From the IMG/VR virus record IMGVR_UViG_3300042361_000498: a stretch of DNA of 64,000 bases, one strand, 5' to 3'. Source of the DNA: a virus (lineage: Duplodnaviria > Caudoviricetes). Within the stretch, counting starts at the first letter, position 1, and the number at the start of each line of letters is the position of its first letter. Below the pieces are notes generated by a model. That model was not told where the DNA came from. It saw nothing but the letters and a program-made list of their open reading frames with translations, and ran no database searches. A program made the translations under genes and the position numbers. Shown here one piece after another: positions 1,447-55,684 of this stretch.

Positions 1447-2283
1447 ATGGGAGCTATAATGAGAAACTTTCCAATACCACTTATACCAGCACCAGGCTCA
1501 ACTGCCAATGTTGCTGTAATAAATAATGTGGTTTTAAGTCCGGGAGTTTGGGGACCACCACAACCATCGGTAGGAGCAAGACAGGGAGATACTTTATCCG
1601 AAGAGGAAAAAGCTGGTGCACAAGAAGATTTGGATGTTGCAAAAAAAGATTTGCAAGAATTTCAAAATGACCCAACACCCGAAGGACAGGCTAAAGCACA
1701 AACTGCAAGAGAACAAATAGCATATCAATCGGAAAGATTGGGAAGTGGTGAGAATGCATCTTCATCGGATGTATCAAATGAACCAAAGCAAGAGATTATA
1801 GCAGATTTGCCACCTGATATGGAAATAGGATTAAAAATAGTTCAATATGCTTTAAGAGATTTAGGAGTAACTGAAAATCCACTACCACCGGGAAAACCTG
1901 AAAATTCCGGTCCAAGAGTTTTACAAATGTTAAAAGGTGTTGGATTTAATACACCCGCATATTGGTGTGCTGCTGCGGTATCTGCTTGGTATAAGAGTGC
2001 TGGTGCAAAATCACCCAATAGTGCATCATGTGATGTTTGGATGAGTTGGGCAAAACGAAATGGATTGTTTAGTAGCAAACCTGCAATTGGAGCAGCTATT
2101 TTATATGGTAGTTCGGCAGATGCACATCACATAGGAATTGTTGAGGCAATAAGTGGGGATAGAGTAACTACAATAGAAGGTAATACTTCTGGTGGTGGTT
2201 TTAGTAGAAACGGAGTAGGTGTATTCCGTAAATCAGCAAGAATTGCAAAAGCAGTTGGATTTGTATTACCAATAAAAAAATAA
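1447..2283 (+). CDS. Peptidoglycan hydrolase with C-terminal CHAP amidase/peptidase domain
   Basis: AYWCAAAVSAW (catalytic Cys), AHHIGIVE (His), IEGNT motif. Confidence 0.85.
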   Translation: MGAIMRNFPIPLIPAPGSTANVAVINNVVLSPGVWGPPQPSVGARQGDTLSEEEKAGAQEDLDVAKKDLQEFQNDPTPEGQAKAQTAREQIAYQSERLGSGENASSSDVSNEPKQEIIADLPPDMEIGLKIVQYALRDLGVTENPLPPGKPENSGPRVLQMLKGVGFNTPAYWCAAAVSAWYKSAGAKSPNSASCDVWMSWAKRNGLFSSKPAIGAAILYGSSADAHHIGIVEAISGDRVTTIEGNTSGGGFSRNGVGVFRKSARIAKAVGFVLPIKK

Positions 2284-2287
2284 TAAA

Positions 2288-3242: not shown

Positions 3243-3251
3243 ATATTTATA
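3243..3251 (+). promoter_or_regulatory. Putative late promoter motif ATATTTATA (first of about 15 copies)
   Basis: Same motif 18-29 nt upstream of many + strand starts (see findings). Confidence 0.6.
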
Positions 3252-7312: not shown

Positions 7313-7313
7313 G

Positions 7314-8402: not shown

Positions 8403-9901
8403 GAACATTTAAAGAGATTATAGATAATAAAGGATATCGTATTGAAGCCAGAGATAGAGAAATTTTTGAGCAGGGAAACCTACAATCTTTTTTTGGATTA
8501 GGTGACCAAGATGCTATTGAGTTTATTATGTACGATACAAATGATAATCAACTTCCTCAAAAAAATGGAAATTTGGTTACATATGTTACACTATCAACCC
8601 AAAACATAAAAGATTACATACTATTACCAGAAGGTACTATATTCCAAAGATATCAGTTTCCAAAAGAATATTTTGTAGATATTGAACGATTGATTAAAGA
8701 AGCTGGATACGATAGTGGTATTTTTAAAACTCAAATAACTTTAATAAATAAAAGAGTTGGTAGTGAGCAAAAATACAATAAACTTTGGATAAATGAAATA
8801 TCACCATCAAGAACTGAAATTAGATTAGTTCCATTAAAAAAAGGATTAGAAACTAATCCAGAATTAAGAGAACGATTTAATTTAATGATAAGAGATGGTA
8901 ATTTTAGAGATGATACTATATATTTTGTATTTAAATTTATTGAAAATATAACTCCTACAAAAATATCATCTTATATGAGAGATAGATATTCAGAGAAATT
9001 TTTAGTTAGATTAAAAACAGAATTTAAAATACAGGATTTTGAAACATTTGTAAGTAGAGTATATGATACATTTGTAGAATCTTCTGCCTATGAATTTACA
9101 AATAGAATATCTGAATTAAATAATGTAAACTATGGAAAACCAAAAAATAGTAGACCTTCAATTGAATTAACTAAAAGTACCATTGTATCAATTTGTCAAA
9201 GATTATTAATAGCATCTTTAGATTATCATTTGTTAAGACCTGATGTTAAAACAACAACTACATTTGATGCAGGTAATGATGCTAGTTATGATGAAGTGGG
9301 TAAAGTTTTACAAAGATTAAATTCAGATACTAGAATTGATACAAGAAGTCCTATTATTGAATTAGTAAAGCAATCTCCACCAGTACTTACGCCTGTTCAA
9401 GAAAAAATACGAATTGTAATTAGAAAGGAAACTCCTATTGATAAAACACTTCCAATATCAACACCTGTTGATTTTCCGGTCGTAGAACCCGAACCACCAA
9501 GACAAGAACCTGAAGTTATTGTAATGAGAAAATATATGGTTTCTAATTTGGCAAGACAAAGAGATGGGGCTGGTCAAATGGTAGTTGTTAGATATCAGAA
9601 CGAATTTAAAGATGGTAAACAAATACAATTGCAAGGTGGGGATTCAATTGATATTTGTGCTTTGCAAAATAGTATAAATATTGAAGACCCTGATGTTAGG
9701 ATGATGGTAAAAGATGTAGGTCCTTGTGATAAAGCCTATGAACGAGTATCACCAGCAATCCCTACCGATGAACCTCGTGGAGGCGCAGCCGCTGGAAGCG
9801 GTGGTGGGGGTACGACCGGTGGGGTGATTGGGAGAAATGATAGATTTGAAACTGGTAATACTACATTCTTTGAAGACCCATCCGTACAAAATATGATATA
9901 G
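8393..9901 (+). CDS. Baseplate-region structural protein
   Basis: 502-aa ORF in the baseplate operon; EISPSRTEIRL motif; Cys-containing C-terminal module. Confidence 0.6.
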   Translation: MAIRTFKEIIDNKGYRIEARDREIFEQGNLQSFFGLGDQDAIEFIMYDTNDNQLPQKNGNLVTYVTLSTQNIKDYILLPEGTIFQRYQFPKEYFVDIERLIKEAGYDSGIFKTQITLINKRVGSEQKYNKLWINEISPSRTEIRLVPLKKGLETNPELRERFNLMIRDGNFRDDTIYFVFKFIENITPTKISSYMRDRYSEKFLVRLKTEFKIQDFETFVSRVYDTFVESSAYEFTNRISELNNVNYGKPKNSRPSIELTKSTIVSICQRLLIASLDYHLLRPDVKTTTTFDAGNDASYDEVGKVLQRLNSDTRIDTRSPIIELVKQSPPVLTPVQEKIRIVIRKETPIDKTLPISTPVDFPVVEPEPPRQEPEVIVMRKYMVSNLARQRDGAGQMVVVRYQNEFKDGKQIQLQGGDSIDICALQNSINIEDPDVRMMVKDVGPCDKAYERVSPAIPTDEPRGGAAAGSGGGGTTGGVIGRNDRFETGNTTFFEDPSVQNMI

Positions 9902-9954
9902 GATAATTTAAAATAAAATATTTATAAAATAACAATACAATAATAAAATAATAA

Positions 9955-15318: not shown

Positions 15319-15371
15319 TTGGAAAATAAAAATAAGTTATATTTATATAATATAGAATAAACGAATAAAAA

Positions 15372-17319: not shown

Positions 17320-17351
17320 ATTAATATTTATATAAAAGTAAAACAAATCAA

Positions 17352-19224: not shown

Positions 19225-20163
19225 ATGCTATCTGGTAAAAATAAAATTGTAGTTATATCGATTTTAGACACAACGCTTGGTGTTGGTTCATCTCTTAAAG
19301 GAAATGAGCAACAACACCATTGTCCATTTTGCCATCATCACAAAAAGAAACTACAAGTCAATTTAGATACACAGCAATGGCATTGTTGGGTGTGTAACTC
19401 CAAAGGTCGTTCCATCTCATCTCTTCTTCGTAAACTAAATGTTGATAGGAGGGATTTGGATAGATTACATAAAATCTATGGAGATGAACCAGCATACTCA
19501 CCAACGGAAGAGTATGTAATCAAACTACAATTACCAAAGGAGTTCAAACAATTACATTTTAAACCATCGGGTCTATTTAATCCAATTTACACCAAAGCAA
19601 TCCATTACCTAAAACAAAGAGGTATAAAGGATTCGGAGATTGTAAAATATAACATTGGATATTGTGAAGATGGATTATATGGGGGTAGGGTTATTATACC
19701 ATCCTATGATGAGAGTGGTGAGTTAAACTATTTTATTGCTCGTTCTTTTTATGAGGATGAAAAGATGAAATACAAAAACCCACCTGTCAATAGAGATGTT
19801 ATTGTATTTGAGAATCAAATAAATTGGAATGAACCTATCACATTAGTTGAAGGAGCATTTGATGCATTTTCCGTAAAGAGAAATGTAATTCCTTTATTGG
19901 GTAAATTCCTATTAAGTAAATTGAAGAATAAGATTTTTGAAAAAGGTGTAAAAGAAATCACCATAATGTTAGATTCGGATGCTATTGAAGATTCCACAAA
20001 GCATTCAGAATGGTTTATTAAAAACGGAATTAAAGTTAAGAATATAATACCTAACGGCAAAGATGCCGGAGAGTTGGGATACGAAAGAGTAAACGAACTT
20101 ATTAAAACTACTACTGAAACTGGTTGGGATGATTTAGTCCTTGCCAAATTAAACAACGTATGA
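19225..20163 (+). CDS. DNA primase (DnaG/gp61-like; Zn finger plus TOPRIM)
   Basis: HCPFCHH...WHCWVC zinc knuckle, GRVIIP, LVEGAFDA and MLDSDA TOPRIM motifs. Confidence 0.9.
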   Translation: MLSGKNKIVVISILDTTLGVGSSLKGNEQQHHCPFCHHHKKKLQVNLDTQQWHCWVCNSKGRSISSLLRKLNVDRRDLDRLHKIYGDEPAYSPTEEYVIKLQLPKEFKQLHFKPSGLFNPIYTKAIHYLKQRGIKDSEIVKYNIGYCEDGLYGGRVIIPSYDESGELNYFIARSFYEDEKMKYKNPPVNRDVIVFENQINWNEPITLVEGAFDAFSVKRNVIPLLGKFLLSKLKNKIFEKGVKEITIMLDSDAIEDSTKHSEWFIKNGIKVKNIIPNGKDAGELGYERVNELIKTTTETGWDDLVLAKLNNV

Positions 20164-23100
20164 GTATAAAAAGAATATATCACATTGCAGATGTTCATAT
20201 CCGTAATGTAAAAAGACACAACGAATATAGACAAGTATTTGAAAAAATGTTTGAGGAGATTCGTAAGAGGGGAACTGAAGATTCACTCATTTATTTAGCT
20301 GGAGATATTGCCCATGCTAAATTGGAAATGAGTCCTGAATTATTAAAAGAAATTAGTTGGTTATTTACGGAGTGTTCTAAGCATTGTGAAACTATCCTTA
20401 TTGCGGGAAATCACGATTGTAATATGAACAACTCCGATAGATTGGATGTTCTGACTCCAATCGTAGATGCATTGAATCTACCAAACTTTCATTACCTTAG
20501 AGATACGCAAGTATATTCAATTGGAGGAATTGATTTTTCAGTATTCTCTATTTTTGATAAAAGAGATAATTGGATTACAGCAGATAAACTATTTGGTAAC
20601 AAAAAGATTGCACTATTTCACGGACCATTAGATACATCCACAACCGATGTAGGATATGTGGTAAGTAGTAGACACTTTAAGCCGGAGATATTTGATGGGT
20701 TTGATTTGGCTCTATTAGGTGATATTCATAAGAGACAAGAAATCATATCGGAAGCTGGATGTAAGATTGTATATGCTGGTTCATTGGTACAACAAAACTT
20801 TGGAGAGAGTTTAGATAAGCACGGATTTGTAGTTTGGGATATGGATACTCTAAACTATGAAGAGGTTGATATCCAAAACGAATACGGATACTACACTATG
20901 AATGTGGATAATGGTATTGTGCCGGATGTAACGGATATGCCATTAAAACCTCGATTGAGAGTTAAGTTATCCAACACCGATACTGCGGATACTAAAAGAG
21001 TGGTAACGGAAATTAAGATGAAGTACAACGTAGATGACTTCACAATCATTCGGACAGACTCATTCTCAAAGAGTAAGACGGGTAATAGAAGTAGTAAGTT
21101 GGACTTCGAAGATATATCGGATATTAACCACCAGAACTCTCTCATATCGGAGTATGTTAAACGAATGATGCCATATACTACCGAAGAGGATTTGAAGGGC
21201 TTAGAAACGATAAATAGAGATGTAAATAGTAGAATCGTAACGGAAGATATTCATAGAAACATTCATTGGAAACCTGTAAGATTTGAATTCAGTAATATGT
21301 TTTCGTATGGGGAGGATAATGTAATTAACTTTGATAAGGTAGGTGGATTGATGGGATTGTTTGCACCAAACGCAGCTGGTAAATCCTCACTATTTGATGC
21401 AATATCATTCTGCCTTTTTGATAAGTGTAGTAGAGCATTCAAAGCAGGAAACATTCTAAACAATCGTAAGGATACCTTTAGTTGTAAGTTGGAGATTGAG
21501 ATTGATGGGGTAAGGTACTTTATTCAAAGGGAAGCAAAGACAGTGAGTAAAGGTAAGAGTGTTAAGGTAGATGTACAATTTTGGAAAGAGAATGGTGATG
21601 GTACGGAAATTCTAAATGGAACGGAACGTAGAGATACCAATAACATCATTGAACAATATGTTGGTAGGTATGAAGATTTTGTACTAACTGCCTTATCATT
21701 GCAAGGAAACAACGCCCTATTCATTGATAAATCTCAAAGTGAAAGAAAGGAATTACTTTCTCAATTTATGGGATTAACTATCTTTGATAAATTATATGAA
21801 ACGGCTAGTGAAGATATTAAAGAGGTAACAACACTTATTAGAAATTTTAAGAGGACCGATTTTACTTCCGAATTAGCAGAAAAACAAAGTGAACTCAAAG
21901 AAAAGAAAGAAGAGTTTGATACATTGGATACTGAATCTAAAGAGTTGGAAACTGAAAAGAGTGAGTTGGAAAAAGAAATTATCCAGTTATCACAACAATT
22001 GACTCCAATGGATGGTAATTTAAACATTGATAGTTTGAATACCAAAAAATCAAATTTAGACCAAAACATTGAGAAGCAGATTGAAAAGATGACAGATAAG
22101 GCATCTAAGTTGGAAGAGTATGAATCTGCATTAAAACAAATTGGAGAGGGTATTGAAGAAAGTAAATTGTATGATGATACTGCAATTGATTATATGTACA
22201 CAAAATTTACAACTCTACAATCCACATACACATCATCACTACACTCTATTGATAAGTTACACATATCATTGGATGCCAACAAAGAAAAGTTATCTCATTT
22301 AGAAAAGCATGAGTATGACCCTAATTGTAACTTTTGTATGAACAACGTATTCGTAAAGGATGCAAAGGAAACTGAAAAGATAGTTGGGGAGCAGTTGATT
22401 GTATTGGAAGAATTGGAAAGAGGTTCAAAAACAATTACTCAAAATCTACAATCATTAAAGGATGTTAAATCTCAATATGATTTGTGGATTTCTTTAACCG
22501 AAAAACAAAAGAAAGGTAACACATTATGCGATAGTACCAAATTGGAGTTAGAGCAGATGGAAACTCAACTACAACTATTCCAACATCAATTGGAAGGAGT
22601 TGAGGGGGATATCCAACGTTACAATGATAATTTGGAAACCATTTCTAAAAACAAAGAGATACAAACTAAAATATCAGAACTAACAACATCTAAAAAAGAA
22701 ATTGAGGGTAAGATAGAAAGTGCTAAAAAGAAACTTTTAAAGTTATCATCCGATACCGGTTCTATTAACACATTTATCAAAGATATGAAAGCTAAGATGG
22801 GGGAGGTTAAGGATTTGGAAACAAAGAATCAATTGTACACATTTTATTTAGATGCGGTTAAGAGAGATGGAATTCCATACGAATTGATTACTAAGGCTCT
22901 GCCTGTAATCGAAGAGGAAATTAACAACATATTAGGACAGGTTGTTGATTTTGGAATCGTAATGGATACGGATGGTAAGAACATCAACGCTAAGATAGTT
23001 TACGATGACCAGGAATGGGCATTGGAAATGTGTAGTGGTATGGAGAAGTTTGTTAGTGGATTGGCAATTAGAGTTGCACTTATTAACATATGTAACTTAC

Positions 23101-23303
23101 CTCGTCCAAACTTCTTAGTAATCGATGAGGGATTTGGTACGTTAGATAGTGATAACCTGTCATCCCTATTTATGATGATGCAATATCTCAAAACTCAATT
23201 TGATTTCATTTGGATGATTTCGCATTTAGAACAAATGAGAGATATTGTAGATGGTTTAATTGAAATCAAAAAAGATAATGGGTTTAGTAAGATTAATTTT
23301 TAA
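20160..23303 (+). CDS. Fused Mre11/SbcD nuclease - Rad50/SbcC ATPase (gp47-gp46-like)
   Basis: Metallophosphoesterase motifs HIADVH, GDIAH, GNHD, FHG, GDIH; Walker A APNAAGKSS; CNFC zinc hook in coiled coil; signature CSGME; Walker B VIDEGFGTLD; H-loop ISH. Confidence 0.92.
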   Translation: MSIKRIYHIADVHIRNVKRHNEYRQVFEKMFEEIRKRGTEDSLIYLAGDIAHAKLEMSPELLKEISWLFTECSKHCETILIAGNHDCNMNNSDRLDVLTPIVDALNLPNFHYLRDTQVYSIGGIDFSVFSIFDKRDNWITADKLFGNKKIALFHGPLDTSTTDVGYVVSSRHFKPEIFDGFDLALLGDIHKRQEIISEAGCKIVYAGSLVQQNFGESLDKHGFVVWDMDTLNYEEVDIQNEYGYYTMNVDNGIVPDVTDMPLKPRLRVKLSNTDTADTKRVVTEIKMKYNVDDFTIIRTDSFSKSKTGNRSSKLDFEDISDINHQNSLISEYVKRMMPYTTEEDLKGLETINRDVNSRIVTEDIHRNIHWKPVRFEFSNMFSYGEDNVINFDKVGGLMGLFAPNAAGKSSLFDAISFCLFDKCSRAFKAGNILNNRKDTFSCKLEIEIDGVRYFIQREAKTVSKGKSVKVDVQFWKENGDGTEILNGTERRDTNNIIEQYVGRYEDFVLTALSLQGNNALFIDKSQSERKELLSQFMGLTIFDKLYETASEDIKEVTTLIRNFKRTDFTSELAEKQSELKEKKEEFDTLDTESKELETEKSELEKEIIQLSQQLTPMDGNLNIDSLNTKKSNLDQNIEKQIEKMTDKASKLEEYESALKQIGEGIEESKLYDDTAIDYMYTKFTTLQSTYTSSLHSIDKLHISLDANKEKLSHLEKHEYDPNCNFCMNNVFVKDAKETEKIVGEQLIVLEELERGSKTITQNLQSLKDVKSQYDLWISLTEKQKKGNTLCDSTKLELEQMETQLQLFQHQLEGVEGDIQRYNDNLETISKNKEIQTKISELTTSKKEIEGKIESAKKKLLKLSSDTGSINTFIKDMKAKMGEVKDLETKNQLYTFYLDAVKRDGIPYELITKALPVIEEEINNILGQVVDFGIVMDTDGKNINAKIVYDDQEWALEMCSGMEKFVSGLAIRVALINICNLPRPNFLVIDEGFGTLDSDNLSSLFMMMQYLKTQFDFIWMISHLEQMRDIVDGLIEIKKDNGFSKINF

Positions 23304-23505: not shown

Positions 23506-23562
23506 AAGTATTAACATAAATATTTATCGTAATATTTATATTGAGAACTAATAGAAATTTCA

Positions 23563-26500
23563 ATGGCAAGAATTAAAAAATACGCTAGTAACCAAACAAC
23601 AAATTTACAGCCACAATTAACTGAATATGGTACTTTTGTCACAGACCAGTTACCATCATCAATATATTTTAGAATATCTGAATTTAAAGATACATTTACA
23701 GGTGGTAAAAACGGATTTCTTATTGAAGGTTCTGAACATTTATTAGAATCTACTGAAATAAAAATAGAAATAATAGATGTAAATGGTAATCCAATTTATT
23801 ATGAACCAGGTGATGGTATACCTGAATATTATGAAGGACTATCTAAATTAGTAGCTGTTTACATTTATGAGGATACTCCAATTGGTATTGCCAACATAAC
23901 TATATTAGGAGAATTAAAAACTTATATAGATAGTGAAGGAAATGTACAACCAATACCAGAAGAATGGAAAGGTATTTATAATGTAAAATGGCAAAAAGAA
24001 TTTAAAGTAAATCGTTTAATAGCAAACGAAGATAGAGTTAGATTTTATAAAAGACCTCAAGTATCAATTACAGAATTAATAAAACCATTATATTCAAATG
24101 TAGTTGCTCAAAAAACAAATAATGGTACTGTTAGTGGTATTCCATTAGCACCATTAGAAAATCAACCATTATCCGAATATAGTTTACCAACATCCTATTT
24201 ATTAACTATAACCGATAATGGTGTATATAATGCTTGGAGTAGTTCGGTTGTTGGAAATACTATAAGTGTACCATCATTGGGATATACAACAACTGCAGAT
24301 GATATAATAAATAAAACTCAATTAGTTGTAACAAATCCATACACAGATTCCAATGGATTGGTTCAGCCATTTGTAAGTGCACCATATACTACAACTTTTA
24401 ATTATTTAGAAGGTGTTAATGATTTAGCAACTGCATTAACTGGTTCATTTGCAAAAATAAGTCTTACTGATTTAACATCATTTGTAGGAGATGTTGCTAG
24501 AGTTAAAGTATTTAGAAAATCGCAATCAGACTTATCCGACTTTCAATTTATTCAAGAAATTCAATTGGAAGCAAATGAATTACTTTTGGATTTGGATATA
24601 CCAACTAAAAATCAAGAAAACTACGGAATATTTACATCGGATATTATTAAAGATTATTGGGTAACATCTTCTAATAATTTAACAGCAACATTTAATCAAA
24701 GTTATTTATATAATTCGGTTAAATTAAATAGTAATTCTTCGGTTTACAAATTCCATACATCAAAATCAATATCAATTACCGAAGATGTTGAATATACTTT
24801 GGATTTTAAAGTTAGAAGTGAAACATCAACTGGTAATGGTTATATTAAAGCATTTTTAAGTGGTTCTAGAGATGGTACAAACGGTAAAGTACAAGTAGAA
24901 CAACAAATAATAGCTGTACCAGCACAAACGGCAGTTTTACAAAAATCAACTGTAACTAAAAATATAATTGCCCAACAAATGGCAACTGCTAGTTTGTATT
25001 TTGAAGTTAGTGGAAACGATTGGTATGTGTCTGATGTTAGTTTAAAAGCATCTCAAGAAAGTTCATTTTCACCCGATGAAATAACATTTATACAATCAGT
25101 TCCAAGAACATTACCGGAGGAAACATTTATATATCGTTTTGAATTCTATGATATTAATAACAACTATATACCTGTAAATGTAGAAGAAACAAAAACATTT
25201 AACGGAGGTAATTTACAAACAATTAGAAAAGGTTTACAATTACTACCATCATCTTTATATTTTCAATTTGATTCTGGTTCAAATCCAGTTCCCCCAACTT
25301 CTATAAACATTCAAGTTGTAAAAACTTTATTAACTGGTTCTGTACGATACACATCTCAATCATTTGATTATGATGGAAGTACTCATACGGCTTTACAATA
25401 TGCAGGTGGGCAGTATCCTGGTGTTTTAAATCAAACAAATCCTGATAATGTAGTATTAACTGTTGGAAATTTTACTGGTAGTAGAAGTGATAAAAATGTA
25501 CAATATTTAGAAATAACCGGTGAAGTGGAAGGATTTACTGATACTATTATTATAACAAAAGTATTAGATGGATTTGGTGGTGTAAACTATATTATTAGAC
25601 CTTATAGAGGAACTCAAATCAGAAATAGTAGTACTGCTTCTTTGGAAATTCAAGCGGTTAGAATTGATGGTATAAATGAGATTATTTTAAATGATACAAT
25701 TGGAAAACCAAAAGGCTGGCCTACTTATCAACTTCACGTATTGTCAGCATCGTTAGACCCATTGAACGAACCTGAAAGGTTTATCAATTTACAAAAAGCA
25801 GTCAATCAAAATTATATTAAAGGATTATCTGTTGGGGAATTGGGTAGTAAACAAATAAACTACAATGCAATATTCAATAGAGATTCTATAAATAAAGTAA
25901 GAGTAGTTTATATATTATCGTCTGGTTCAATAACACAACAACCTGCTTTTATAGCATCCGCATCTGTATTGACATCTATAAATTTAGAGGATTTGCAAGA
26001 TGGTTTGGATTCTGGATTTATGGTATATAATACGGATACGTTTACTATCAATCCAAGAACTCAAACAATATTTACACCTGTATCGGCAAGTGTTACGGGT
26101 TCATTTTATAAAAGAGGAACTAACGTAGAACCATTTACCGCATCATTTGAGGTGTTCCCATCAATGTCTTTAAACATAGATTTTGAGCCGGAATATTGGA
26201 TGTATTATGTAACTGGTAAATTTCATCCAAATATTTCAGTAGTAGCAATTGATGAAAAGAAAAGAGAAATACCATCAAGAGCAGTTTCTAATCATATATA
26301 CTCACCATTATCACAAAGTAAAACATTAACCGTAACATTAACTTATACCGAAGATTATACATCATCATCTATAAGTTTGGATAAGACATTTACAATTGTA
26401 CCTGAAGGAAAGCCGGGTGATGAGAGTATTGTATTTGAAGTAGTACCTACCAATGTAACCTTAAACTCAAATGCAGAAGGTACTGTTTTAGATTACAAAC

Positions 26501-29500
26501 CATCTATAACTGATATTAAATTAAAACAAGGTAGTAGATATTTGATATTTACTGGAAGTAGAGCAGCTGGTACATTCCACATTGCATCATCCTCAATAAG
26601 TTCACAAAATATCACACCTGGTAATGTACACTTTACATCATCATTTGGGATACCATATACTGCATCATTAATTGTATCTCAATCTTCAAATCTTACTGAT
26701 TTAAGTGGTAGTATAACATATCCATTGATTATACATCCGTACTATACATCATCAATCTACACACAAAGTATTGTTCAAAACTATACCAAAGCAGTTGATG
26801 GACCTCCACCAATTGATGTAATAATAACTCCAACTAATATTACATTAAATGCCGATGAGAATGGTTTTGTATCAACTTTAGCTCCCGCACAAACTACAAT
26901 TCAATTAAGAGAAGGTAGTAAATTTTTAACATTTAATAGTAATTCAGCAGAAACACCTGGTACTTTTAAATTTGGTAGTACACCTACTCAAAATATTACA
27001 ATAAGTACTTTGCAGGGAAATGGTACTAATTCGGCAACTGCATCATTTAGTTTATTTAATTATCCACATGTATCGGCAAGTGTAAATTATAATATAATTG
27101 CATTTCCATATTCATTGGGACCTGGTCATAGATTTACATCATCAGTATTTAATAGAACTCAAACTATAACGAAGAATGTGGCTGCAACTGCTGCTAGAAC
27201 TATTAATTTAACATCAACTGCATATACTATAACTTATGATTCGGATGGGCAAGTAGTTAATCCAACAGATGGTATTACATTAGTTGCAACTGCATTTAAT
27301 ACAACTGGTTCTAGATTTTATCAATTTTTTAAAGATGATGTAGCTCAAACACCAATACAAACTACGGCAACTAGAAATGTAGCTCCTGAAGATGCAGTTG
27401 CTGTTGGTGAAGTTGCAACTTGGAAAGTAACATTAAGAGATGGTAGTAATTCAGCATCGGCACCAATTAGAGCACAAGCCTCTGTAACAATTGCTGGTGT
27501 TGGGGATGGTACTAAAGCATATAACGCAGTTGTAAATCCCGAAAACACTTCTATTGTTTATAAAGTTTCTGGTGAGTTGGAAATAGCTAATACATCTGCA
27601 GTAATAACGGCAACAAAAGGTGGAGAAGCTCTAACACATAGACCATCTGGTTTTAGTGCACAATCACAAGACCCATTTGGAAATAATATAGGTTCATTAG
27701 GTGAGTATCAGGTAACTATTCATTCTAAATCAAATCATATAGTTTTGGGTGATAGTAAAGTTAGTGGTAGTGTATTGAATGGTAGTACTAACGCAACTAT
27801 TAGTAATTTAGCAGGATGGGTAAATCCGATTGGAAATCCAACGGGACAGATTGTTTATAGAATTAATTTTGAAAACGGAAAACAAATAACTTTTAAAACA
27901 CAATCAATTGCAATTCAATACGAAGGAGACACTGGACCTGGTATTGTAATGAGAGGTGTGTGGAATCAAACTACTAATTACATAGGTTCGGTTGAAACAA
28001 CAAACTATCGTAGAGATGCGGTAATTTGGCCTGACCCTGGTAACTCTGGTGGTAACACTAGATATTATGCGGCAATTAGTGGTAGTGGACCAGGTACCGC
28101 AACTGGATATCATGAACCTGTTTACTCACCATCACCTGTTGATAGTGCATGGTGGCAATACTTAGGTGACCAAGAATTCTTTGTGGCAGCTAAGATTGCA
28201 ATATTCGATGAATCATTTGTTAAAAATACAATTAATATTGGTAACAATGCTGGTAGTCCTTTTGCAAACATTGTATTAGCTGGGGGTAGAGATGACCCTT
28301 ATATGGCAATTGGACAAAACGGAACTGTTGGTGGAAACGGAATTCAATATGACCCATCTACACACCCTACTATAATTGGATATGATAAGATTGGTATATT
28401 TGCTGGTATGTACAATGGTGCAACATACGAACCACGTTTTTCATTAAGAGGAAGTGGTGGTAATTATTTAAGATGGAATGGCAGTACTTTGGATATTAGT
28501 GGTGCGATAACGGTAACTGGAGGTGATGCGGCAACACAAACATATGCATCTCAATCGGCAGCAACTGCGTTATCATCGGCATTGACAACTGTAAACGCAT
28601 TGGCCGCCGGTACTTACAATATTGGTACAACTACATTCATTACAAACAATTTTATATCTGCACCGGTAATTGCTGGAACTGCTGGATATATACAAAAATT
28701 ATTTAGGGTTGGCGATGATACAGCTGCATCAATTTATTTAGATGCTAGAAATATAGCCGATGGAGCAGCTGATAATTATCGTAGAATATGGATTGGTAGT
28801 GGTGCATATGGTATTTATGGTGATTCAAATACTTCATTTTATGTAGATAGTAATAATAGATTTTCGTTAGGTGATAAATTAACATTTACTGGTGGTAATT
28901 TAAGTGTAAGTGGTAATATAACTTCAACCGGTGGAAGTATTGGTGGATGGACTATAGATTCCAATTCAATTTTTAGTGGAACAAAGGGTACTAATGGTGC
29001 TTATACCGCAGCGGCAGGTAGTGTAACAATATCATCAGAGGGATGGATTTCATCAAAAAATTTCAGAATATCATCAACAGGCGCTGTAAATGCAGATGTT
29101 ATTGATGTGAGTGATGTGTTAGCTTCATCGGCCTATTTTGGTACTGCTCGAGGAAATTATACAATTGCAATTGATACCAATGCTATGACATTAGCAGGAT
29201 ATTCACGATTCGATTTGGGAGCAGTTGCTGGTATTGTGGGTACATATACATCATTCATTGCATTTACTGATGGTGGTGGTACTCCATCGGGTACCATATT
29301 AAGTTCATTTGGTGCAACTGGATTAACTGTAAATGGTGCAATTACCGCAACTGGAAATATTACTGCTTATTACTCTGATGAAAGATTAAAAACAAAATTG
29401 GGTAATATTACTAACGCAATTGATAAGATATCACAATTAAACGGATTTTACTATACAAATAATGAGTTAGCAAATTCATTTGGATATACCGATGATAAAA

Positions 29501-29733
29501 CTCAATTGGGTTTATCTGCGCAAGAAGTACAAAATGTATTTCCTAATATTGTATCACTAGCACCATTTGATATGAAGGTATATTTACCAAATGAAACTAA
29601 AACCGATACACCACCCGAATCTAAATCTGGAGAAAACTATTTAACAATTGATTACTCCAAATTAGTACCTGTATTAGTTGAGGCAATAAAAGAATTGAAA
29701 GCGGAAATTGAAGAATTAAAAAGAAATAAATAA
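23563..29733 (+). CDS. Giant tail fibre/spike protein (2056 aa) with C-terminal peptidase S74 intramolecular chaperone
   Basis: YSDERLKTKLGNITNAIDKISQLNG...LTIDYSKLVPVLVEAIKELKAEIEELK; tandem beta modules; RGVWNQTTNY carbohydrate-binding-like module. Confidence 0.88.
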   Translation: MARIKKYASNQTTNLQPQLTEYGTFVTDQLPSSIYFRISEFKDTFTGGKNGFLIEGSEHLLESTEIKIEIIDVNGNPIYYEPGDGIPEYYEGLSKLVAVYIYEDTPIGIANITILGELKTYIDSEGNVQPIPEEWKGIYNVKWQKEFKVNRLIANEDRVRFYKRPQVSITELIKPLYSNVVAQKTNNGTVSGIPLAPLENQPLSEYSLPTSYLLTITDNGVYNAWSSSVVGNTISVPSLGYTTTADDIINKTQLVVTNPYTDSNGLVQPFVSAPYTTTFNYLEGVNDLATALTGSFAKISLTDLTSFVGDVARVKVFRKSQSDLSDFQFIQEIQLEANELLLDLDIPTKNQENYGIFTSDIIKDYWVTSSNNLTATFNQSYLYNSVKLNSNSSVYKFHTSKSISITEDVEYTLDFKVRSETSTGNGYIKAFLSGSRDGTNGKVQVEQQIIAVPAQTAVLQKSTVTKNIIAQQMATASLYFEVSGNDWYVSDVSLKASQESSFSPDEITFIQSVPRTLPEETFIYRFEFYDINNNYIPVNVEETKTFNGGNLQTIRKGLQLLPSSLYFQFDSGSNPVPPTSINIQVVKTLLTGSVRYTSQSFDYDGSTHTALQYAGGQYPGVLNQTNPDNVVLTVGNFTGSRSDKNVQYLEITGEVEGFTDTIIITKVLDGFGGVNYIIRPYRGTQIRNSSTASLEIQAVRIDGINEIILNDTIGKPKGWPTYQLHVLSASLDPLNEPERFINLQKAVNQNYIKGLSVGELGSKQINYNAIFNRDSINKVRVVYILSSGSITQQPAFIASASVLTSINLEDLQDGLDSGFMVYNTDTFTINPRTQTIFTPVSASVTGSFYKRGTNVEPFTASFEVFPSMSLNIDFEPEYWMYYVTGKFHPNISVVAIDEKKREIPSRAVSNHIYSPLSQSKTLTVTLTYTEDYTSSSISLDKTFTIVPEGKPGDESIVFEVVPTNVTLNSNAEGTVLDYKPSITDIKLKQGSRYLIFTGSRAAGTFHIASSSISSQNITPGNVHFTSSFGIPYTASLIVSQSSNLTDLSGSITYPLIIHPYYTSSIYTQSIVQNYTKAVDGPPPIDVIITPTNITLNADENGFVSTLAPAQTTIQLREGSKFLTFNSNSAETPGTFKFGSTPTQNITISTLQGNGTNSATASFSLFNYPHVSASVNYNIIAFPYSLGPGHRFTSSVFNRTQTITKNVAATAARTINLTSTAYTITYDSDGQVVNPTDGITLVATAFNTTGSRFYQFFKDDVAQTPIQTTATRNVAPEDAVAVGEVATWKVTLRDGSNSASAPIRAQASVTIAGVGDGTKAYNAVVNPENTSIVYKVSGELEIANTSAVITATKGGEALTHRPSGFSAQSQDPFGNNIGSLGEYQVTIHSKSNHIVLGDSKVSGSVLNGSTNATISNLAGWVNPIGNPTGQIVYRINFENGKQITFKTQSIAIQYEGDTGPGIVMRGVWNQTTNYIGSVETTNYRRDAVIWPDPGNSGGNTRYYAAISGSGPGTATGYHEPVYSPSPVDSAWWQYLGDQEFFVAAKIAIFDESFVKNTINIGNNAGSPFANIVLAGGRDDPYMAIGQNGTVGGNGIQYDPSTHPTIIGYDKIGIFAGMYNGATYEPRFSLRGSGGNYLRWNGSTLDISGAITVTGGDAATQTYASQSAATALSSALTTVNALAAGTYNIGTTTFITNNFISAPVIAGTAGYIQKLFRVGDDTAASIYLDARNIADGAADNYRRIWIGSGAYGIYGDSNTSFYVDSNNRFSLGDKLTFTGGNLSVSGNITSTGGSIGGWTIDSNSIFSGTKGTNGAYTAAAGSVTISSEGWISSKNFRISSTGAVNADVIDVSDVLASSAYFGTARGNYTIAIDTNAMTLAGYSRFDLGAVAGIVGTYTSFIAFTDGGGTPSGTILSSFGATGLTVNGAITATGNITAYYSDERLKTKLGNITNAIDKISQLNGFYYTNNELANSFGYTDDKTQLGLSAQEVQNVFPNIVSLAPFDMKVYLPNETKTDTPPESKSGENYLTIDYSKLVPVLVEAIKELKAEIEELKRNK

Positions 29734-30485: not shown

Positions 30486-31445
30486 ATGGTAAACACTACT
30501 AAAAAACTACGTTATATATGCGCTCAACCTGCTATTACTTATTACATTTGGCAGGTTGAAGTAATGTTAAACAATTTTATGCAGATGGGTATCAATTTAA
30601 ATAATATTGATATTGTATGCTGGCAACAAAATGATGAACTACCTGAAGAATGGAGTAAACTATCTAACAATTATGAAGCTAGATTCTTTTTTTATAGGGA
30701 TACTAGAGAAACTCATCATTACATTTCATCAATCCGTCCTAATATTTTAAAGCAACATTGGAAAGCGCATCCTTATCTTAAAGATGATACCATATTTTAC
30801 CACGATTGCGATATTATATTTACCAAAAATATAAAGGAATGGATAACGGATGAGATGATAAATGATGATAAATGGTATGGTTCGGATACTAGATGGTACA
30901 TATCACACTCTTATATCAAATCTAAAGGTGATGATGTAATACAAAAGATGTGTGAGTTAATGGAATTGCCTGAAACACTTATTGAAGGTAATGAACTAAA
31001 CGCAATTGGTGCACAATATCTAATGAAAGGTGTTGATTATGATTATTGGAATAGAGTAGAATCGGATTCAGAAATGCTATTCAAAGAAATTACCGAACAA
31101 TGTAATGAAAAAGTAAAGAAAGACCCTACACACCACCCTTTACAAATATGGTGTGCAGATATGTGGGCTGTATTATGGGGAGGTTGGAGATTGGGATATG
31201 AGACAGTATGTCATCCTAACTTTGATTTTAGTTGGGCTACGTCTGGTATAGATGATTATTATAAAATGAACATCATGCATAACGCAGGTGTAACAAACTC
31301 AACATCAGGTATGTTTTACAAAGCAGACTATATAAATAAACTACCATATAATGAAAACATAATTATTGATAAAAATTATGCATCTTATTATTATTGGAAA
31401 GAAATATGTAGAACTTCTAAAAAATCAGTATTAACAAAAAAATAA
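30486..31445 (+). CDS. GT-A fold glycosyltransferase (HPAT/SERGT-like)
   Basis: FYHDCDIIF (DxD-type), GAQYLM, WCADMWA and IMHNAG motifs. Confidence 0.6.
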   Translation: MVNTTKKLRYICAQPAITYYIWQVEVMLNNFMQMGINLNNIDIVCWQQNDELPEEWSKLSNNYEARFFFYRDTRETHHYISSIRPNILKQHWKAHPYLKDDTIFYHDCDIIFTKNIKEWITDEMINDDKWYGSDTRWYISHSYIKSKGDDVIQKMCELMELPETLIEGNELNAIGAQYLMKGVDYDYWNRVESDSEMLFKEITEQCNEKVKKDPTHHPLQIWCADMWAVLWGGWRLGYETVCHPNFDFSWATSGIDDYYKMNIMHNAGVTNSTSGMFYKADYINKLPYNENIIIDKNYASYYYWKEICRTSKKSVLTKK

Positions 31446-31507
31446 TAAATAATCGTTTTGATAAATAAAAAAACATATATTTATATATAAACATATAGAA
31501 TAAAATT

Positions 31508-31792
31508 ATGGCACAACGTAGTGAACAATTAGCAGAAGAAACTTATAATAAATTAAGAAATCTGCAAGACGAAATAAATAATTTAGTTGTAACAATTGGA
31601 CAAGCGCATTTGCAAATAAGAGATGCTGAAACTCAATTGAAAAACTTTAAATTCTCATTGGAAAATTTAGAAACTCAATTTGATGAAAAAAATGAAGAAT
31701 TAAATGAGGTATTGTATGTAATGGAAAAGGCATATCCAAAAGGAGAGATTGATTTAATTAATGGTACAATCACTTACGAAGAAGCTGAATAA
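31508..31792 (+). CDS. Small coiled-coil protein (paralog of 35208..35570)
   Basis: Heptads ending in AYPKGEIDLINGTI. Confidence 0.7.
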   Translation: MAQRSEQLAEETYNKLRNLQDEINNLVVTIGQAHLQIRDAETQLKNFKFSLENLETQFDEKNEELNEVLYVMEKAYPKGEIDLINGTITYEEAE

Positions 31793-31795
31793 AAA

Positions 31796-31827
31796 TTAGG
31801 AAATACCAAAAAAGTTTCGTATATTTG
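31796..31827 (+). promoter_or_regulatory. Bacteroidota sigma-A type promoter
   Basis: TTAG-N20-TATATTTG; the ATG lies only 5 nt after the -7 box. Confidence 0.7.
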
Positions 31828-31832
31828 TTATA

Positions 31833-34013
31833 ATGAATAATACACGTAAAAAATTGTTATACGTTGCTCCTCACTTATCTACTGGAGGACAACCACAATA
31901 TCTATTAAAGCAAGTTGAACATTTCTACAAAGATTACCAAATAAAGGTAGTTGAAGTTAGAAATAGTGGGGGTGATGCATTTGTGGTTCAAAAAAACAAA
32001 ATCAAAGCATTAGTTCCCGTACACACTTTATATGAGGATAAATCGGATATACTAAAAGTTATAGATGATTTTGAACCTGATATTATTCATTTTCAGGAAA
32101 TACCACAACACGATTTAGATTACGATATATTGGATAAAATATGGGATGATAATCGTAAGTATTTTATTATAGCAACAACACACGGCTCATTTACAGACCC
32201 CGATGCAATTATTTACCAACCCGATAGATATGTGTTAGTATCTGAATGGAGTAGAAGAAAGTTTGAACATTTGGGTGTTGATACTATGTTGTGGGAATAT
32301 CCAATTGAGGATATTAAATACGATAAAGATAAAGCAAAGGAGGTATTAGGATTTGAAAAAGATTGGAAGCACGTTCTTAATGTAGGATTGTTTGCTCCCG
32401 GCAAAAACCAAGCTGAAATATTTGAGGTAGCTAGATTGTTGGAAAAATATAAAATAAAATTTCACTTTGTAGGAAACCAAGCTGGAAACTTTGAGGATTA
32501 TTGGAAACCTTTGATGGATGATAAACCATCTAATTGTGTAGTGTGGGGGGAACGAAATGATGCTGATAAGTTTTACGCAGCAGCTGATTTCTTTTATTTC
32601 TCAACACTTTGGGAATTGAATCCATTATCAATTAAAGAAGCACTATCATATAAACTACCATGTATCTTTAGAAGGTTACATACTTATTTGGATACCTATG
32701 ATAATAATCCATTGGTAACTTATATTGATGGGGATGTACCTGCAACTAAAAAAATTATATTAGAACAATTAAAACCTGATTTTGGTGAAATAGAAGGGTG
32801 GTTCTACTATAATCATATGTATAAAGATATAGTTCAAGCTGGATATGATGGGTGTGAATTTGTAGAAGTTGGTGTGTGGAAGGGCAAATCTACCAATTAT
32901 ATGATTCAGAAAATAAAAGAGTCTGGTAAACGTATTCACTTTACAACTGTTGATACGTTTAAAGGAACTGAATCGGAACCTTGGCATAACCCAGTGGTTC
33001 AACATTATAATGGAGATTTATTTCCTGAATTTATTGATAACACATTATTATCAAACAACTATGGGTTATTTGATATTATAAAAGATAATTCCGTAAATGC
33101 AGCAAATCAATTTAAGAATAATAGTATTGATTATATAATGATTGATGCCGGGCATACTTACGAAGATGTTACAACTGATTTAAAAACTTGGTATAAAAAA
33201 GTAAAACCGGGTGGTATTATTAGTGGTGATGATTATACAATAACCGATGGTGTAACCAATGCTGCAAACGATTTCTTTTATGGGCAATTTGATAAAACGT
33301 ATTATAGGGCATTCTTACGAAAGAAACCTAGAATTCAAATCAAACATTTATTAACATCTCCATTTAACGCAAGAGAATATATTAGTATTGCTTCCATAAA
33401 ACAATTACAAAAATATGGAATTGATTACACTCAAAGTGTAACTGAAGTGTATAAAGATATTCCACCTACCGAACATTGTAGGAGACCCGAACATATAAGT
33501 AAAGATAATAAGCCGGGTGAGTTATGGCCTGGCGCTGGATTGGGTTGGATAACTGGTGGACATTATGGGTGTTATTTAGCACATAAGAACGCAGTTGATA
33601 GCTTGGATGATAAATACGATTACACTCTTATATTCGAAGCAGATGCGTTCATTTACACCGGTTTGGAAGAGTTTGTAGATATAGTTCACAAAGCGTGTTT
33701 CATTTCGGAAAGAGACGATGTGTACTATATTGGATTGGCAAATAACCCATCTCGTTCAAAAGAAAAGGTAGATGAATTATTTTCACAAACCGCACATAAC
33801 CAAGACCTTGCACATGCTTATTTGGTTAGAAACAAAGATAAACAATGGTGGAAAGATAGGATAGCAGATTGTGAATGGGATGTTGGTGATTTATGGTATA
33901 ATCACGTATTTGCTAAATATCCAATGAAAAGATATACTACAAACAAAATGTATAGTAATCAGACGGAGGGATTCTCATTATTAGACCAAACAATTAAAAC
34001 TTGGAACGTATGA
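31833..34013 (+). CDS. Three-domain enzyme: GT4 glycosyltransferase + class I SAM methyltransferase (Methyltransf_24-like) + GT25-like glycosyltransferase
   Basis: HLSTGGQP and FSTLWELNPLSIKEAL (GT-B); VEVGVWKGKS and IMIDAGHTY...KPGGIISGDDY (methyltransferase); GHYGCYLAH...LIFEADA (GT25-like). Confidence 0.8.
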   Translation: MNNTRKKLLYVAPHLSTGGQPQYLLKQVEHFYKDYQIKVVEVRNSGGDAFVVQKNKIKALVPVHTLYEDKSDILKVIDDFEPDIIHFQEIPQHDLDYDILDKIWDDNRKYFIIATTHGSFTDPDAIIYQPDRYVLVSEWSRRKFEHLGVDTMLWEYPIEDIKYDKDKAKEVLGFEKDWKHVLNVGLFAPGKNQAEIFEVARLLEKYKIKFHFVGNQAGNFEDYWKPLMDDKPSNCVVWGERNDADKFYAAADFFYFSTLWELNPLSIKEALSYKLPCIFRRLHTYLDTYDNNPLVTYIDGDVPATKKIILEQLKPDFGEIEGWFYYNHMYKDIVQAGYDGCEFVEVGVWKGKSTNYMIQKIKESGKRIHFTTVDTFKGTESEPWHNPVVQHYNGDLFPEFIDNTLLSNNYGLFDIIKDNSVNAANQFKNNSIDYIMIDAGHTYEDVTTDLKTWYKKVKPGGIISGDDYTITDGVTNAANDFFYGQFDKTYYRAFLRKKPRIQIKHLLTSPFNAREYISIASIKQLQKYGIDYTQSVTEVYKDIPPTEHCRRPEHISKDNKPGELWPGAGLGWITGGHYGCYLAHKNAVDSLDDKYDYTLIFEADAFIYTGLEEFVDIVHKACFISERDDVYYIGLANNPSRSKEKVDELFSQTAHNQDLAHAYLVRNKDKQWWKDRIADCEWDVGDLWYNHVFAKYPMKRYTTNKMYSNQTEGFSLLDQTIKTWNV

Positions 34014-35158
34014 TATACGAAAATTTAAAAAGAAATATAAATAATATAACCGAAGTAAAAAACAGCGTATCGGTTAATTTTGTTAAAGGTGCATTTGTAG
34101 AAATAAAAGGACCTTACAAAGCAGAGTACACCGTTGATTTTATAGATAATAGGAGTGGTAAACGTATATTTGCATCTGATATTGGAAATAATTGTTGGAC
34201 ACGGTGTACTAAAGAATATTTTGTAGAATGGAAAATACAAATTTATCAAAATGGAAAACTTTGGTATGAACATTTATATGATGCAACTGATAAGAGAGTT
34301 TACATCCCATTGGATTCAAAAGCATTGGGTGATACAATGGCTTGGTTTCCATATGTAGATGAGTTCCGTAAAAAACATAATTGTAAAGTTGTAACATCTA
34401 CTTTTATGAATGATTTATTTGTAGATGAATACCCTGAATTAGAATTTATTAATCCCGGTGAAGCAGCTGAAAACCTTTATGCAATGTATTCGGTTGGTTT
34501 ATTTTACAATGATAATAACGAACCAAACTTACAAAAAAACCCAAATGATTTTAGAAAACAACCATTGCAAAAAATGTGTTCGGATATTTTAGGATTAGAT
34601 TATGTGGAGGTTAGACCTAAAATAAAACACAATCCAATTGAAATAAATTCAGAATTAAAACAAATTACTATTGGTGTATTTGGTACGGCTCAACCTAAAT
34701 TTTGGAATAACAAAGATGGCTGGCAGTATGTAGTTGATTGGTTAAACTCAAAAGGATACACAGTCAAACTAATATCAAAAGAAGGAGATGATTATATGGG
34801 GAATAAATTACCAACGGGAATTGTTAAACATCCAAACGGTCCTTTGAGTGATGTAATTGATGAACTTAGAAAATCAAAAGCATTTATAGGAATTGGTAGT
34901 GGGTTGAGTTGGTTAAGTTGGGCAGTTAATACTCCAACGGTATTGGTGAGTGGATTCTCATATGATTGGGCAGAAATGCAAGATTGTGTAAGAATTGGTG
35001 CACCTGAAGGAAAGTGTAGTGGATGTTTCAATCGGTATAGATTAGATGCTGGTGATTGGAATTGGTGTCCTGACCACAAAGGTACGGATAGACAATTTGA
35101 GTGTACCAAATCAATAACACCACAATCGGTAATAAAAGAATTAGAAAAATTCTTATAA
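34010..35158 (+). CDS. Autotransporter strand-loop-strand O-heptosyltransferase family (AAH/TibC-like) glycosyltransferase
   Basis: SKALGDTMAWFPYVDEFRKKHNC, FIGIGSGLSWLSWA, and the Cys cluster CSGCFN...WNWCPDHKGTDRQFECTK. Start moved to ATG 34010 (ATGA overlap). Confidence 0.8.
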   Translation: MIYENLKRNINNITEVKNSVSVNFVKGAFVEIKGPYKAEYTVDFIDNRSGKRIFASDIGNNCWTRCTKEYFVEWKIQIYQNGKLWYEHLYDATDKRVYIPLDSKALGDTMAWFPYVDEFRKKHNCKVVTSTFMNDLFVDEYPELEFINPGEAAENLYAMYSVGLFYNDNNEPNLQKNPNDFRKQPLQKMCSDILGLDYVEVRPKIKHNPIEINSELKQITIGVFGTAQPKFWNNKDGWQYVVDWLNSKGYTVKLISKEGDDYMGNKLPTGIVKHPNGPLSDVIDELRKSKAFIGIGSGLSWLSWAVNTPTVLVSGFSYDWAEMQDCVRIGAPEGKCSGCFNRYRLDAGDWNWCPDHKGTDRQFECTKSITPQSVIKELEKFL

Positions 35159-35207
35159 AAATTAAAAAACAATATATTTATATATAAACAAACAAAACAA
35201 TAATATT

Positions 35208-35570: not shown

Positions 35571-35616
35571 AAATTTATTCTATATTTATATAGTATAAAG
35601 AGTAATACTATATTTA

Positions 35617-55626: not shown

Positions 55627-55684
55627 ATTTTATCCCTTTCCAACTTTTTTATATTTATAAGAGTATTATAATATTTCAATAAAA

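Follow-up and report, generated by a model that had tools for sequence, protein, structure and literature searches.

Candidate protein O-glycosylation modules beside the fibre genes of an uncultured T4-like lake phage

The window analysed here is the whole 64-kb stretch of DNA (64,000 nucleotides) presented from IMG/VR record IMGVR_UViG_3300042361_000498. It has a G+C content of about 32%, carries nearly all of its genes on the + strand and constitutes the structural block of a T4-like phage, with genes for baseplate wedge and lysozyme-like proteins, an SbcD-SbcC fusion, the large terminase, a T4-type portal and a gp23-like capsid protein. The record itself is a 71.8-kb fragment (71,791 bases) with an estimated completeness of 36%, and the nearest isolates by terminase identity are Flavobacterium phage vB_FspM_immuto (57%) and Microcystis phage Mel-JY01 (56%); the source is an uncultured T4-like lake phage. 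The subject of this study is the group of genes at 30486-35158, which the original prediction described as a probable virion O-glycosylation system of four glycosyltransferase (GT) domains plus a methyltransferase. All five catalytic domains are indeed present there, on the + strand and after a fibre gene, as confirmed by Pfam, NCBIfam and PDB matches and by folds modelled with AlphaFold2 (AF2).

The giant tail fibre gene (23563-29733; all features described below are likewise on the + strand) specifies 2056 amino acids (aa), with a C-terminal intramolecular-chaperone domain (Peptidase_S74, residues 1938-1997). It is followed by the gene for P0008 (29733-30479), translated as a Cys-rich protein of 248 aa with a run of nine Thr and proposed here as the acceptor of P0005, and by that for P0005 itself (30486-31445), a 319-aa GT of GT-A fold whose shape resembles the hydroxyproline O-arabinosyltransferases (HPAT). 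Next come cc94 (31508-31792), a 94-aa coiled-coil protein that matched coiled-coil families only, all below their cut-offs, and P0006 (31833-34013), a protein of 726 aa in three domains: a GT4 domain of GT-B type (residues 1-335; 31833-32837), an S-adenosylmethionine (SAM)-dependent methyltransferase of the Methyltransf_24/TylF type (residues 336-489; 32838-33299) and a GT25-like GT-A domain (residues 490-726; 33300-34013). P0007 (34010-35158) is a protein O-glycosyltransferase of the TibC/Aah (BAHT) type. Its probable start is the ATG at 34010, which overlaps the P0006 stop as ATGA and replaces the TTG at 34001. Elsewhere in the window lie the genes for two collagen-like fibres, P0003 (57689-60325; 878 aa) and P0004 (60338-63613; 1091 aa).

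P0007 aligns with TibC (PDB 4rap) over residues 42-377 (E 4e-56) and scores 293.2 bits against the equivalog profile TIGR04414 (cut-off 200), spanning profile positions 7-373 of 374. In TibC, Asp-110 is the catalytic base, Thr-226 and Lys-230 are ligands of the beta-phosphate and Trp-305 is the ligand of heptose O4 (PMC4358343). All four residues are identical in P0007, where they fall in the motifs LGD, GTAQPK and GLSW, and the catalytic Asp and Lys are near-universal across the 95 homologues compared, L124 having Asn for Asp. (L-numbers denote the loci and contigs compared, with L001 being Chryseobacterium phage MA9V-3, L002 Lactobacillus phage iLp84, L003 Mel-JY01 (PP395634.1) and L105 LR756501.1.) The four Cys of the iron finger, at positions 339, 342, 358 and 370 of TibC, are all aligned in P0007 (CSGC...WCP...FEC) and invariant in the alignment, and the thumb hairpin of TibC is retained.

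In P0006, residues 164-281 match Glycos_transf_1 (PF00534) with 38.1 bits (gathering threshold 26.4), while the glycosyltransferase family phrog_2170 covers residues 10-335. The methyltransferase domain matches PF13578 (76.4 bits against 26.3) and PF05711, the TylF family (33.4 bits against 23), and gives weak PDB matches to O-methyltransferases. The C-terminal 237 aa were modelled by AF2 as a GT-A fold (pLDDT, predicted local distance difference test, 82), and the top Foldseek matches of this model were COLGALT1 (9evj/9evk; E 1e-7; template modelling (TM) score by query 0.56-0.61) and Mimivirus R655. By sequence, the domain scored 13.2 bits against PF01755 (GT25), below the threshold of 24. 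Weak PF01755 matches were obtained in 16 of 17 homologues of the domain (best E 1.6e-4), two relatives carry a precomputed PF01755 match, and JGI names relatives 'GR25 family glycosyltransferase'. Proteins that contain the P0007 domain and are longer than P0007 numbered 3030; among the 120 listed, most are GT4 fusions and some are fusions to FkbM or Methyltransf_24 (MT24) domains, with Mel-JY01 and the megaphage LR756501 as examples of TibC-like fusions. Because GT4, methyltransferase and TibC-like domains are fused in this way, the activities seem to work on one product, in support of a unit that initiates, extends and caps a glycan.

The Ser/Thr-rich fibres that had been reported elsewhere in the window proved to be collagen-like. 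Pfam Collagen (the triple-helix repeat of uninterrupted Gly-X-Y, PF01391; gathering threshold 27.2) matches P0003 with 111 bits (E 2e-32) and P0004 with 59.6 bits (E 3e-16). P0003 has an Mtd_N N-terminus (E 3e-9) and blocks of (Gly-Thr-Ser)n; of 80 triplets, 63 have Thr in the X position and 61 have Ser in the Y position, and the repeats hold zero Pro and one Lys. The N-terminal collagen-like region of P0004 likewise consists of Gly-Thr-Ser repeats, with no proline and almost no lysine. P0004 also has 14 [IVLF][ST]GS[LIVFA] motifs, all of them outside the collagen-like part, and its sole match to TIGR04415, at 62951-63010, is below threshold.

Genes of this kind recur near TibC-like genes. A Ser/Thr-rich, Pro-free collagen-like open reading frame (ORF) lies within 10 kb of the TibC-like gene in five of six long metagenomic contigs, which were picked for length alone, and the arrangements vary. 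Mel-JY01 has a 1016-aa collagen-like ORF (2-3049) located 1.7 kb upstream of its TibC fusion, and LR756501 has one 5 kb away; in Flavobacterium phage immuto, no TibC homologue, no P0006 homologue and no collagen repeats were found. A tree was built by a quick IQ-TREE run from 96 homologues, comprising 80 loci from bacterial genomes or metagenome-assembled genomes (MAGs), collected by an alignment-based contig scan, together with phage and plasmid loci. It is divided by a split with full support (SH-aLRT 100%) into a branch of 47 rows, which holds the window and every phage locus, and a classical branch of 49 rows, which holds the enzymes of an E. coli plasmid, Burkholderia, Pandoraea and Kosakonia. 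The window's branch contains 20 of the 21 collagen-linked loci and the classical branch the remaining one. With the sequence score and active site of the TibC/Aah family but neither its acceptor signature nor its adenine contact, P0007 is most aptly placed in a separate, collagen-associated branch of that family.

The deposited annotation of Mel-JY01 (PP395634.1) looks wrong at this locus: its + strand collagen-like frame (2-3049) is covered by two minus-strand coding sequences labelled 'hypothetical', and the 1226-aa 'methyltransferase FkbM' at 4750-8430 actually contains GT4 and TibC-type domains. Collagen-repeat matches number 72 in the 735-kb megaphage LR756501.1, where they fall in open frames reaching about 3,500 aa and lie at about 104-124 kb, 257-263 kb, 392-421 kb and 586 kb. 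A possible fibre-modification island in a different phage lineage, L107:639-12094, has an adenosine phosphosulfate (APS) kinase, a sulfotransferase, two oxygenases of the prolyl 4-hydroxylase (P4H)-type 2-oxoglutarate (2OG)-Fe(II) class and a GT2 between a collagen-like S74 fibre and a GT4-TibC fusion, which hints at hydroxylation and sulfation of the fibre besides its glycosylation.

Conservation of the cassette was assessed in 80 viral contigs, fetched because they carry a P0007 relative at 66-94% identity. The order shared across these loci is SbcCD, giant fibre, zero to two small ORFs, cc94, GT4-methyltransferase-GT25, TibC-like enzyme, p120, polyprotein, p229 and terminase. A fibre of 1700-2500 aa stands ahead of the cassette in nearly all of them, cc94 leads the cassette, before the GT4 gene, in most, and the methyltransferase domain is gone in four (L018, L080-L082). 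In the window, p120, an ORF of 120 aa downstream of P0007, is the sixth gene after the giant fibre, and the gene after it encodes the polyprotein (from 35617), which begins, as it does in related loci, with a cytidylyltransferase-like domain. The slot between fibre and cc94 is variable and holds, for instance, a P4H-type 2OG oxygenase (PF13640; L076:6948-7505), DUF6445 (L016:6933-7532) or a Phage_tail_APC chaperone (L029:7062-7433). Only 5 of the 80 loci have P0005 close to the cassette, and neither of the two longest related contigs (58% and 67% complete) yielded it.

An octamer, TATTTATA, is found on the + strand 27-36 nt upstream of nine ATGs in the window (at 3244-3251, 9919-9926, 15340-15347, 17325-17332, 23533-23540, 31478-31485, 35175-35182, 35583-35590 and 55652-55659), including those of the giant fibre, cc94, p120, the polyprotein and other structural genes; the copies at 23533-23540 and 31478-31485 each lie 30 nt upstream of their genes, the giant fibre and cc94, respectively. 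Only the + strand reading of the octamer is positioned ahead of genes, and it may be the late-promoter element of this clade. If it does act as a promoter, the copy ahead of cc94 would make cc94, P0006 and P0007 a unit of their own, under control shared with structural genes, and P0008 and P0005 would belong to the transcription unit of the fibre. The genes look like two modules, one composed of cc94, P0006 and P0007 (module A) and the other of P0008 and P0005 (module B). The octamer is often embedded in aaaTATTTATAtata and is the reverse complement of the T4 late-promoter octamer. The T4 late promoter, TATAAATA, proved not to be enriched overall: it has 24 matches against 16.5 expected, and 24 were reached in 6 of 100 shuffles.

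Sequence searches with P0005 gave no Pfam, NCBIfam or PDB match, even with a profile of 51 sequences, and rows for TAL effectors in the profile search were rejected as noise; the only sequence family found is phrog_4417 (E 8e-62). The AF2 model (pLDDT 97) has a GT-A fold, with a conserved DxD motif (D107/D109) and a conserved H265. The nearest named shapes, in a comparison with predictions on both sides and no solved HPAT structure, are three Chlorophyta clusters whose members are HPAT by annotation in 99-100% of cases (TM 0.71-0.75, with about 280-290 residues superposed), and matches to GT8, GT6, GT24 and WbbM in the PDB reach TM scores of only 0.4-0.5. Sequence membership in the HPAT family (GT95; PF23452) was not found, as P0005 gave no match and 1 of its 51 relatives matched at E 0.23. 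The HPAT label of the original prediction is thus one of resemblance in predicted fold, not of family membership.

The fusion partners seen in P0005 relatives are GT2, GT6, GT32, radical-SAM/SPASM or MT24 domains, and in other aquatic phages these relatives sit after large structural genes, often with further sugar enzymes. In all three contigs inspected first, the gene directly upstream of the P0005 relative encodes a poly-Thr protein. This pairing was examined in 72 viral loci with a P0005 relative at 48-73% identity, a run being defined as [ST]{6,}: the upstream neighbour has such a run in 53 of the 72, compared with 27 of 775 other ORFs of the same loci (p 1e-47). In Lactobacillus phage iLp84 (L002, 5620-6879), the P0005-family gene follows that of a 125-aa protein with five poly-Thr runs, directly past the major capsid gene, and in Chryseobacterium phage MA9V-3 (L001, 5624-8924) it follows that of a protein with a T6-S-T6-SS-T6 run. 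Furthermore, poly-Thr and P0005 co-vary within the window's clade: the closest loci, L004 and L005, have a P0008-like gene without a Thr run and no P0005, and L058, L076 and L081 have both. P0005 thus appears to be a variable add-on, forming a separate pair with the poly-Thr protein P0008. Deposited phage genomes with a gene of phrog_4417, annotated as hypothetical, number 77, and most belong to phages of Lactobacillus, Enterococcus, Staphylococcus and Lactococcus.

These observations are best accommodated if the region encodes two phage-borne protein O-glycosylation modules that act on virion proteins, a reading to which a probability of roughly 0.62 is assigned and for which we infer the acceptors, the order of steps, the donors and the effect on the virion. 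Both modules would be switched on together with the structural genes and, in the manner of TibC on TibA, would modify newly made virion proteins in the infected cell's cytoplasm, prior to assembly. In module A, P0007 would add the first sugar to Ser/Thr of a repetitive fibre, the acceptors most probably being P0003 and P0004, with their proline-free (Gly-Thr-Ser)n repeats, and possibly the giant fibre too. The GT4 and GT25-like domains of P0006 would then lengthen the glycan, and its TylF-like methyltransferase would O-methylate a sugar. In module B, the target of P0005 would be the run of Thr in P0008, which its sugars would turn into a mucin-like segment.

Several findings weigh against this reading, some concerning the linkage of the genes and others the enzyme itself. 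Of the loci that span at least 12 kb, 20 of 32 in the window's branch and 1 of 27 in the classical branch have a Ser/Thr collagen-like neighbour (Fisher p 1.4e-6), but the counted loci are partly related, such that Fisher tests overstate their independence, and some of the 'bacterial' MAG loci may be phage DNA. An association of TibC-branch genes with Ser/Thr collagen-like genes, of the sort that the original prediction had proposed to test, is favoured by these counts, with exceptions: L109, syntenic with the window, shows no collagen-like ORF closer than 10 kb, and the megaphage LR756504 (636 kb), related to LR756501, has a TibC homologue and zero collagen repeats genome-wide. The associated claim that the enzymes act on the phage's own Ser/Thr-rich structural proteins is supported by gene linkage in many lineages, but in the window's own clade the cassette adjoins a giant non-collagen fibre. 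There the collagen-like genes are 22 kb off, and the acceptor proposed for this phage is therefore drawn from other lineages. As for the enzyme, TibC Arg-286, on which ADP-sugar specificity rests, contacts adenine N1, and its replacement by Ala abolished or largely diminished heptosylation (PMC4358343); the equivalent residue of P0007 is Val, so that this adenine contact is lost. The classical AIDA-type acceptor signature is also missing, with one 17-bit match to TIGR04415 (cut-off 30) and zero to PF16168 across the contig, and an AIDA-type strand-loop-strand autotransporter acceptor was rejected because this single half-repeat is below threshold and PF16168 is absent. Finally, the profile of heptose-7-phosphate kinase (rfaE_dom_I) gave no match when run against the contig of the window, two related contigs and the complete genome of Mel-JY01.

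The last points bear on the donor sugar. Position 286 is V, I, L, M or T in the part of the branch nearest to the window, to which the loss of Arg is confined, and Arg is retained by nearly all of the classical branch. TibC Pro-300, a determinant of heptose stereoselectivity (PMC4358343), is Gly in P0007. The lost adenine contact makes the 'heptosyl' donor uncertain for P0007 and, together with the lack of a heptose kinase match in the clade and in Mel-JY01, leaves room for another nucleotide sugar. At L111:12094-14151, a GT4-TibC fusion is directly followed by genes for a 130-aa protein most similar to HldE domain II (84.7 bits) and a 250-aa protein most similar to HldE domain I (103.5 bits), neither score reaching its cut-off, and after these by an FkbM methyltransferase and a 1503-aa collagen-like ORF, and the HldE-like pair may be a phage-borne supply of ADP-heptose. 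Because the L111 enzyme also has Val at position 286 and yet adjoins these genes, ADP-heptose remains a candidate donor. For the phage of the window, a self-encoded ADP-heptose supply was rejected, given that rfaE_dom_I was unmatched and that HldE-like genes were seen only in L111, which is of a different lineage and gave scores below cut-off. The cytidylyltransferase-like N-terminus of the gene starting at 35617 was likewise left out of the system, as it has a weak likeness to nicotinamide mononucleotide (NMN) adenylyltransferase and only its HxGH region in common with the L111 HldE-like protein.

The position of the cassette raises the alternative that module A is a fibre-linked accessory operon, acting on the adjacent giant fibre (23563-29733) instead of, or besides, the distant collagen-like fibres. 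The giant fibre gene stands ahead of the cassette, with zero to two small ORFs in between, in nearly every one of the 80 loci and also in L109; moreover, the fibre is 20% Ser+Thr, has five [IVLF][ST]GS[LIVFA] motifs and, in five relatives, contains a short Gly-Thr-Ser collagen-like stretch. The window's giant fibre lacks such a stretch, however, and this adjacency is seen in a single clade, in which it may be inherited gene order, whereas the neighbour that recurs beside TibC-like genes beyond the clade, in varying arrangements, is a collagen-like ORF. This alternative is therefore considered unlikely, though by no means negligible. It is improbable that the enzymes modify a target outside the virion, be it host lipopolysaccharide (LPS) or capsule, with superinfection block or surface change as the outcome, phage DNA bearing a glycan on a hypermodified base, or host proteins. 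According to work cited in PMC12619734, phage glycosyltransferases are best known for DNA glucosylation and serotype conversion, the GT4 and GT25 families include many LPS and lipooligosaccharide (LOS) enzymes, and PHROGs labels the P0006 methyltransferase family 'DNA methyltransferase'. Yet that domain matches sugar and small-molecule O-methyltransferases (TylF), not DNA methyltransferases, and the sole known activity of the TibC/Aah family is Ser O-glycosylation of proteins (PMC4358343). The enzyme genes also lie within the structural-gene block, with its promoter-like motif, and their statistical linkage to collagen-like and poly-Thr genes would be unexpected for DNA or LPS targets.

A single linear pathway, in which all four GT domains and the methyltransferase serve one acceptor, is quite improbable. 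It agrees with the contiguity and common orientation of all the genes between the fibre and the terminase block, and with the fusion of P0005 relatives themselves to other GTs and MT24 domains. P0005, however, is outside the conserved cassette, as judged from its rarity near it (5 of 80 loci) and from the two longest contigs, falls in the putative transcription unit of the fibre and not in that of the cassette, and has its own strongly linked neighbour, the poly-Thr proteins, in phages without TibC. Of the initiate-extend-cap pathway first proposed, the fusions support a unit of TibC, GT4 and methyltransferase activities, from which P0005 appears to stand apart.

Among known systems, P0007 is closest to the enzymes of TibC/TibA and Aah/AIDA-I of E. 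coli (BAHT; TIGR04414; 4rap, 4rb4; PMC4358343), with which it has in common the equivalog score, the catalytic residues, the thumb hairpin and the iron finger; its work, too, would be done in the cytoplasm, on Ser of a repetitive protein and ahead of the assembly of that protein. Unlike these enzymes, it is encoded by a phage within a structural block, with no autotransporter and no AIDA-type strand-loop-strand repeat; it differs from TibC by the Arg-286 to Val and Pro-300 to Gly changes, by a separate branch whose members stand beside Pro-free collagen-like genes, and by its coupling, with relatives fused, to GT4, methyltransferase and GT25-like domains. P0006 recalls A064R of chlorovirus PBCV-1, in which two glycosyltransferases and a methyltransferase in one protein build the end of the capsid N-glycan (PMC9614988). 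Both are single viral polypeptides with two GT domains and a SAM methyltransferase, and A064R completes and methyl-caps a virion glycan. The families and the order of the domains differ, P0006 having GT4 (GT-B), methyltransferase and GT25-like domain in turn; the PBCV-1 glycans are N-linked to the major capsid protein of a eukaryotic virus, and the activity of A064R is biochemically proven. Mimivirus, with L230, exemplifies a virus that has collagen-like Gly-X-Y proteins and encodes their glycosylation (PMC9614988). The best structural match of the P0006 C-terminal domain, COLGALT1, belongs with L230 and animal LH3 (PDB 9evj, 8zgc) to enzymes that act on hydroxylysine, whereas the phage Gly-Thr-Ser triplets, with one Lys and no Pro, would have to be modified at Ser/Thr; the likeness of this domain to COLGALT1-type enzymes is one of fold and family only, at 14-15% identity.

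Plant HPAT enzymes (PF23452) act on hydroxyproline runs in extensins. P0005 would resemble them in starting glycans on runs of one hydroxy-amino acid, but in the cytoplasm and with a poly-Thr acceptor, whereas HPAT enzymes are located in the Golgi and use hydroxyproline. Mycobacteriophages encode GTs that attach O-glycans to structural proteins of the same phage (Freeman et al. 2023, as cited in PMC12619734). Those glycans are on C-terminal extensions of capsid and tail-tube subunits of actinophages, and the passage on them in PMC12619734 mentions no TibC-type enzyme and no collagen-like or poly-Thr acceptor. Full-text literature searches found no paper tying TibC-type enzymes to phages or collagen-like fibres and none on the poly-Thr pairing.

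Virus-encoded glycosylation of the virus's own particle is already established for giant viruses, and among phages the precedent is that of the mycobacteriophages. The present findings place a well-understood bacterial family, TibC/Aah, in phages and tie it to a different class of candidate acceptor. Collagen-like genes of the kind described here are abundant in aquatic and gut phage metagenomes, where no chemistry has been assigned to them, and if the proposal is true, thousands of 'hypothetical' phage genes would gain a function, among them those of phrog_4417, which also occurs in Lactobacillus, Enterococcus and Staphylococcus phages. Glycans would furthermore have to be counted among the determinants of phage adsorption, of particle stability and of recognition by antibodies. 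In a deep-sea worm, a proline-poor collagen is stabilised by galactosyl-Thr, and Bacillus BclA carries O-glycans on Thr of its collagen-like region. By extension, glycans could, speculatively, stabilise proline-free helices, which would explain the possible stability of these collagen-like fibres. A broader proposal, tentative and on balance doubtful, is that tailed phages of many lineages make 'glycocollagen', with TibC-branch enzymes and their fused GT4 and methyltransferase partners adding sugars to proline-free (Gly-Thr-Ser)n fibres, and 'phage mucins', by way of HPAT-like GT-A enzymes and poly-Thr linkers of head or tail proteins. Sugars would in that case replace hydroxyproline in helix stabilisation, and the two widespread, hitherto undescribed systems would shape fibre stiffness, adhesion or shielding.

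Two further observations concern the window as a whole. Its final 971 bases (63030-64000) are absent from the 71,791-base contig, which points to differing assembly versions or extents. Upstream of the giant fibre, at 20160-23303, a single 1047-aa ORF matches both SbcD-like (residues 2-346) and SbcC-like (residues 317-1046) nuclease subunits, and the equivalents of gp47 and gp46 are therefore fused in this phage.

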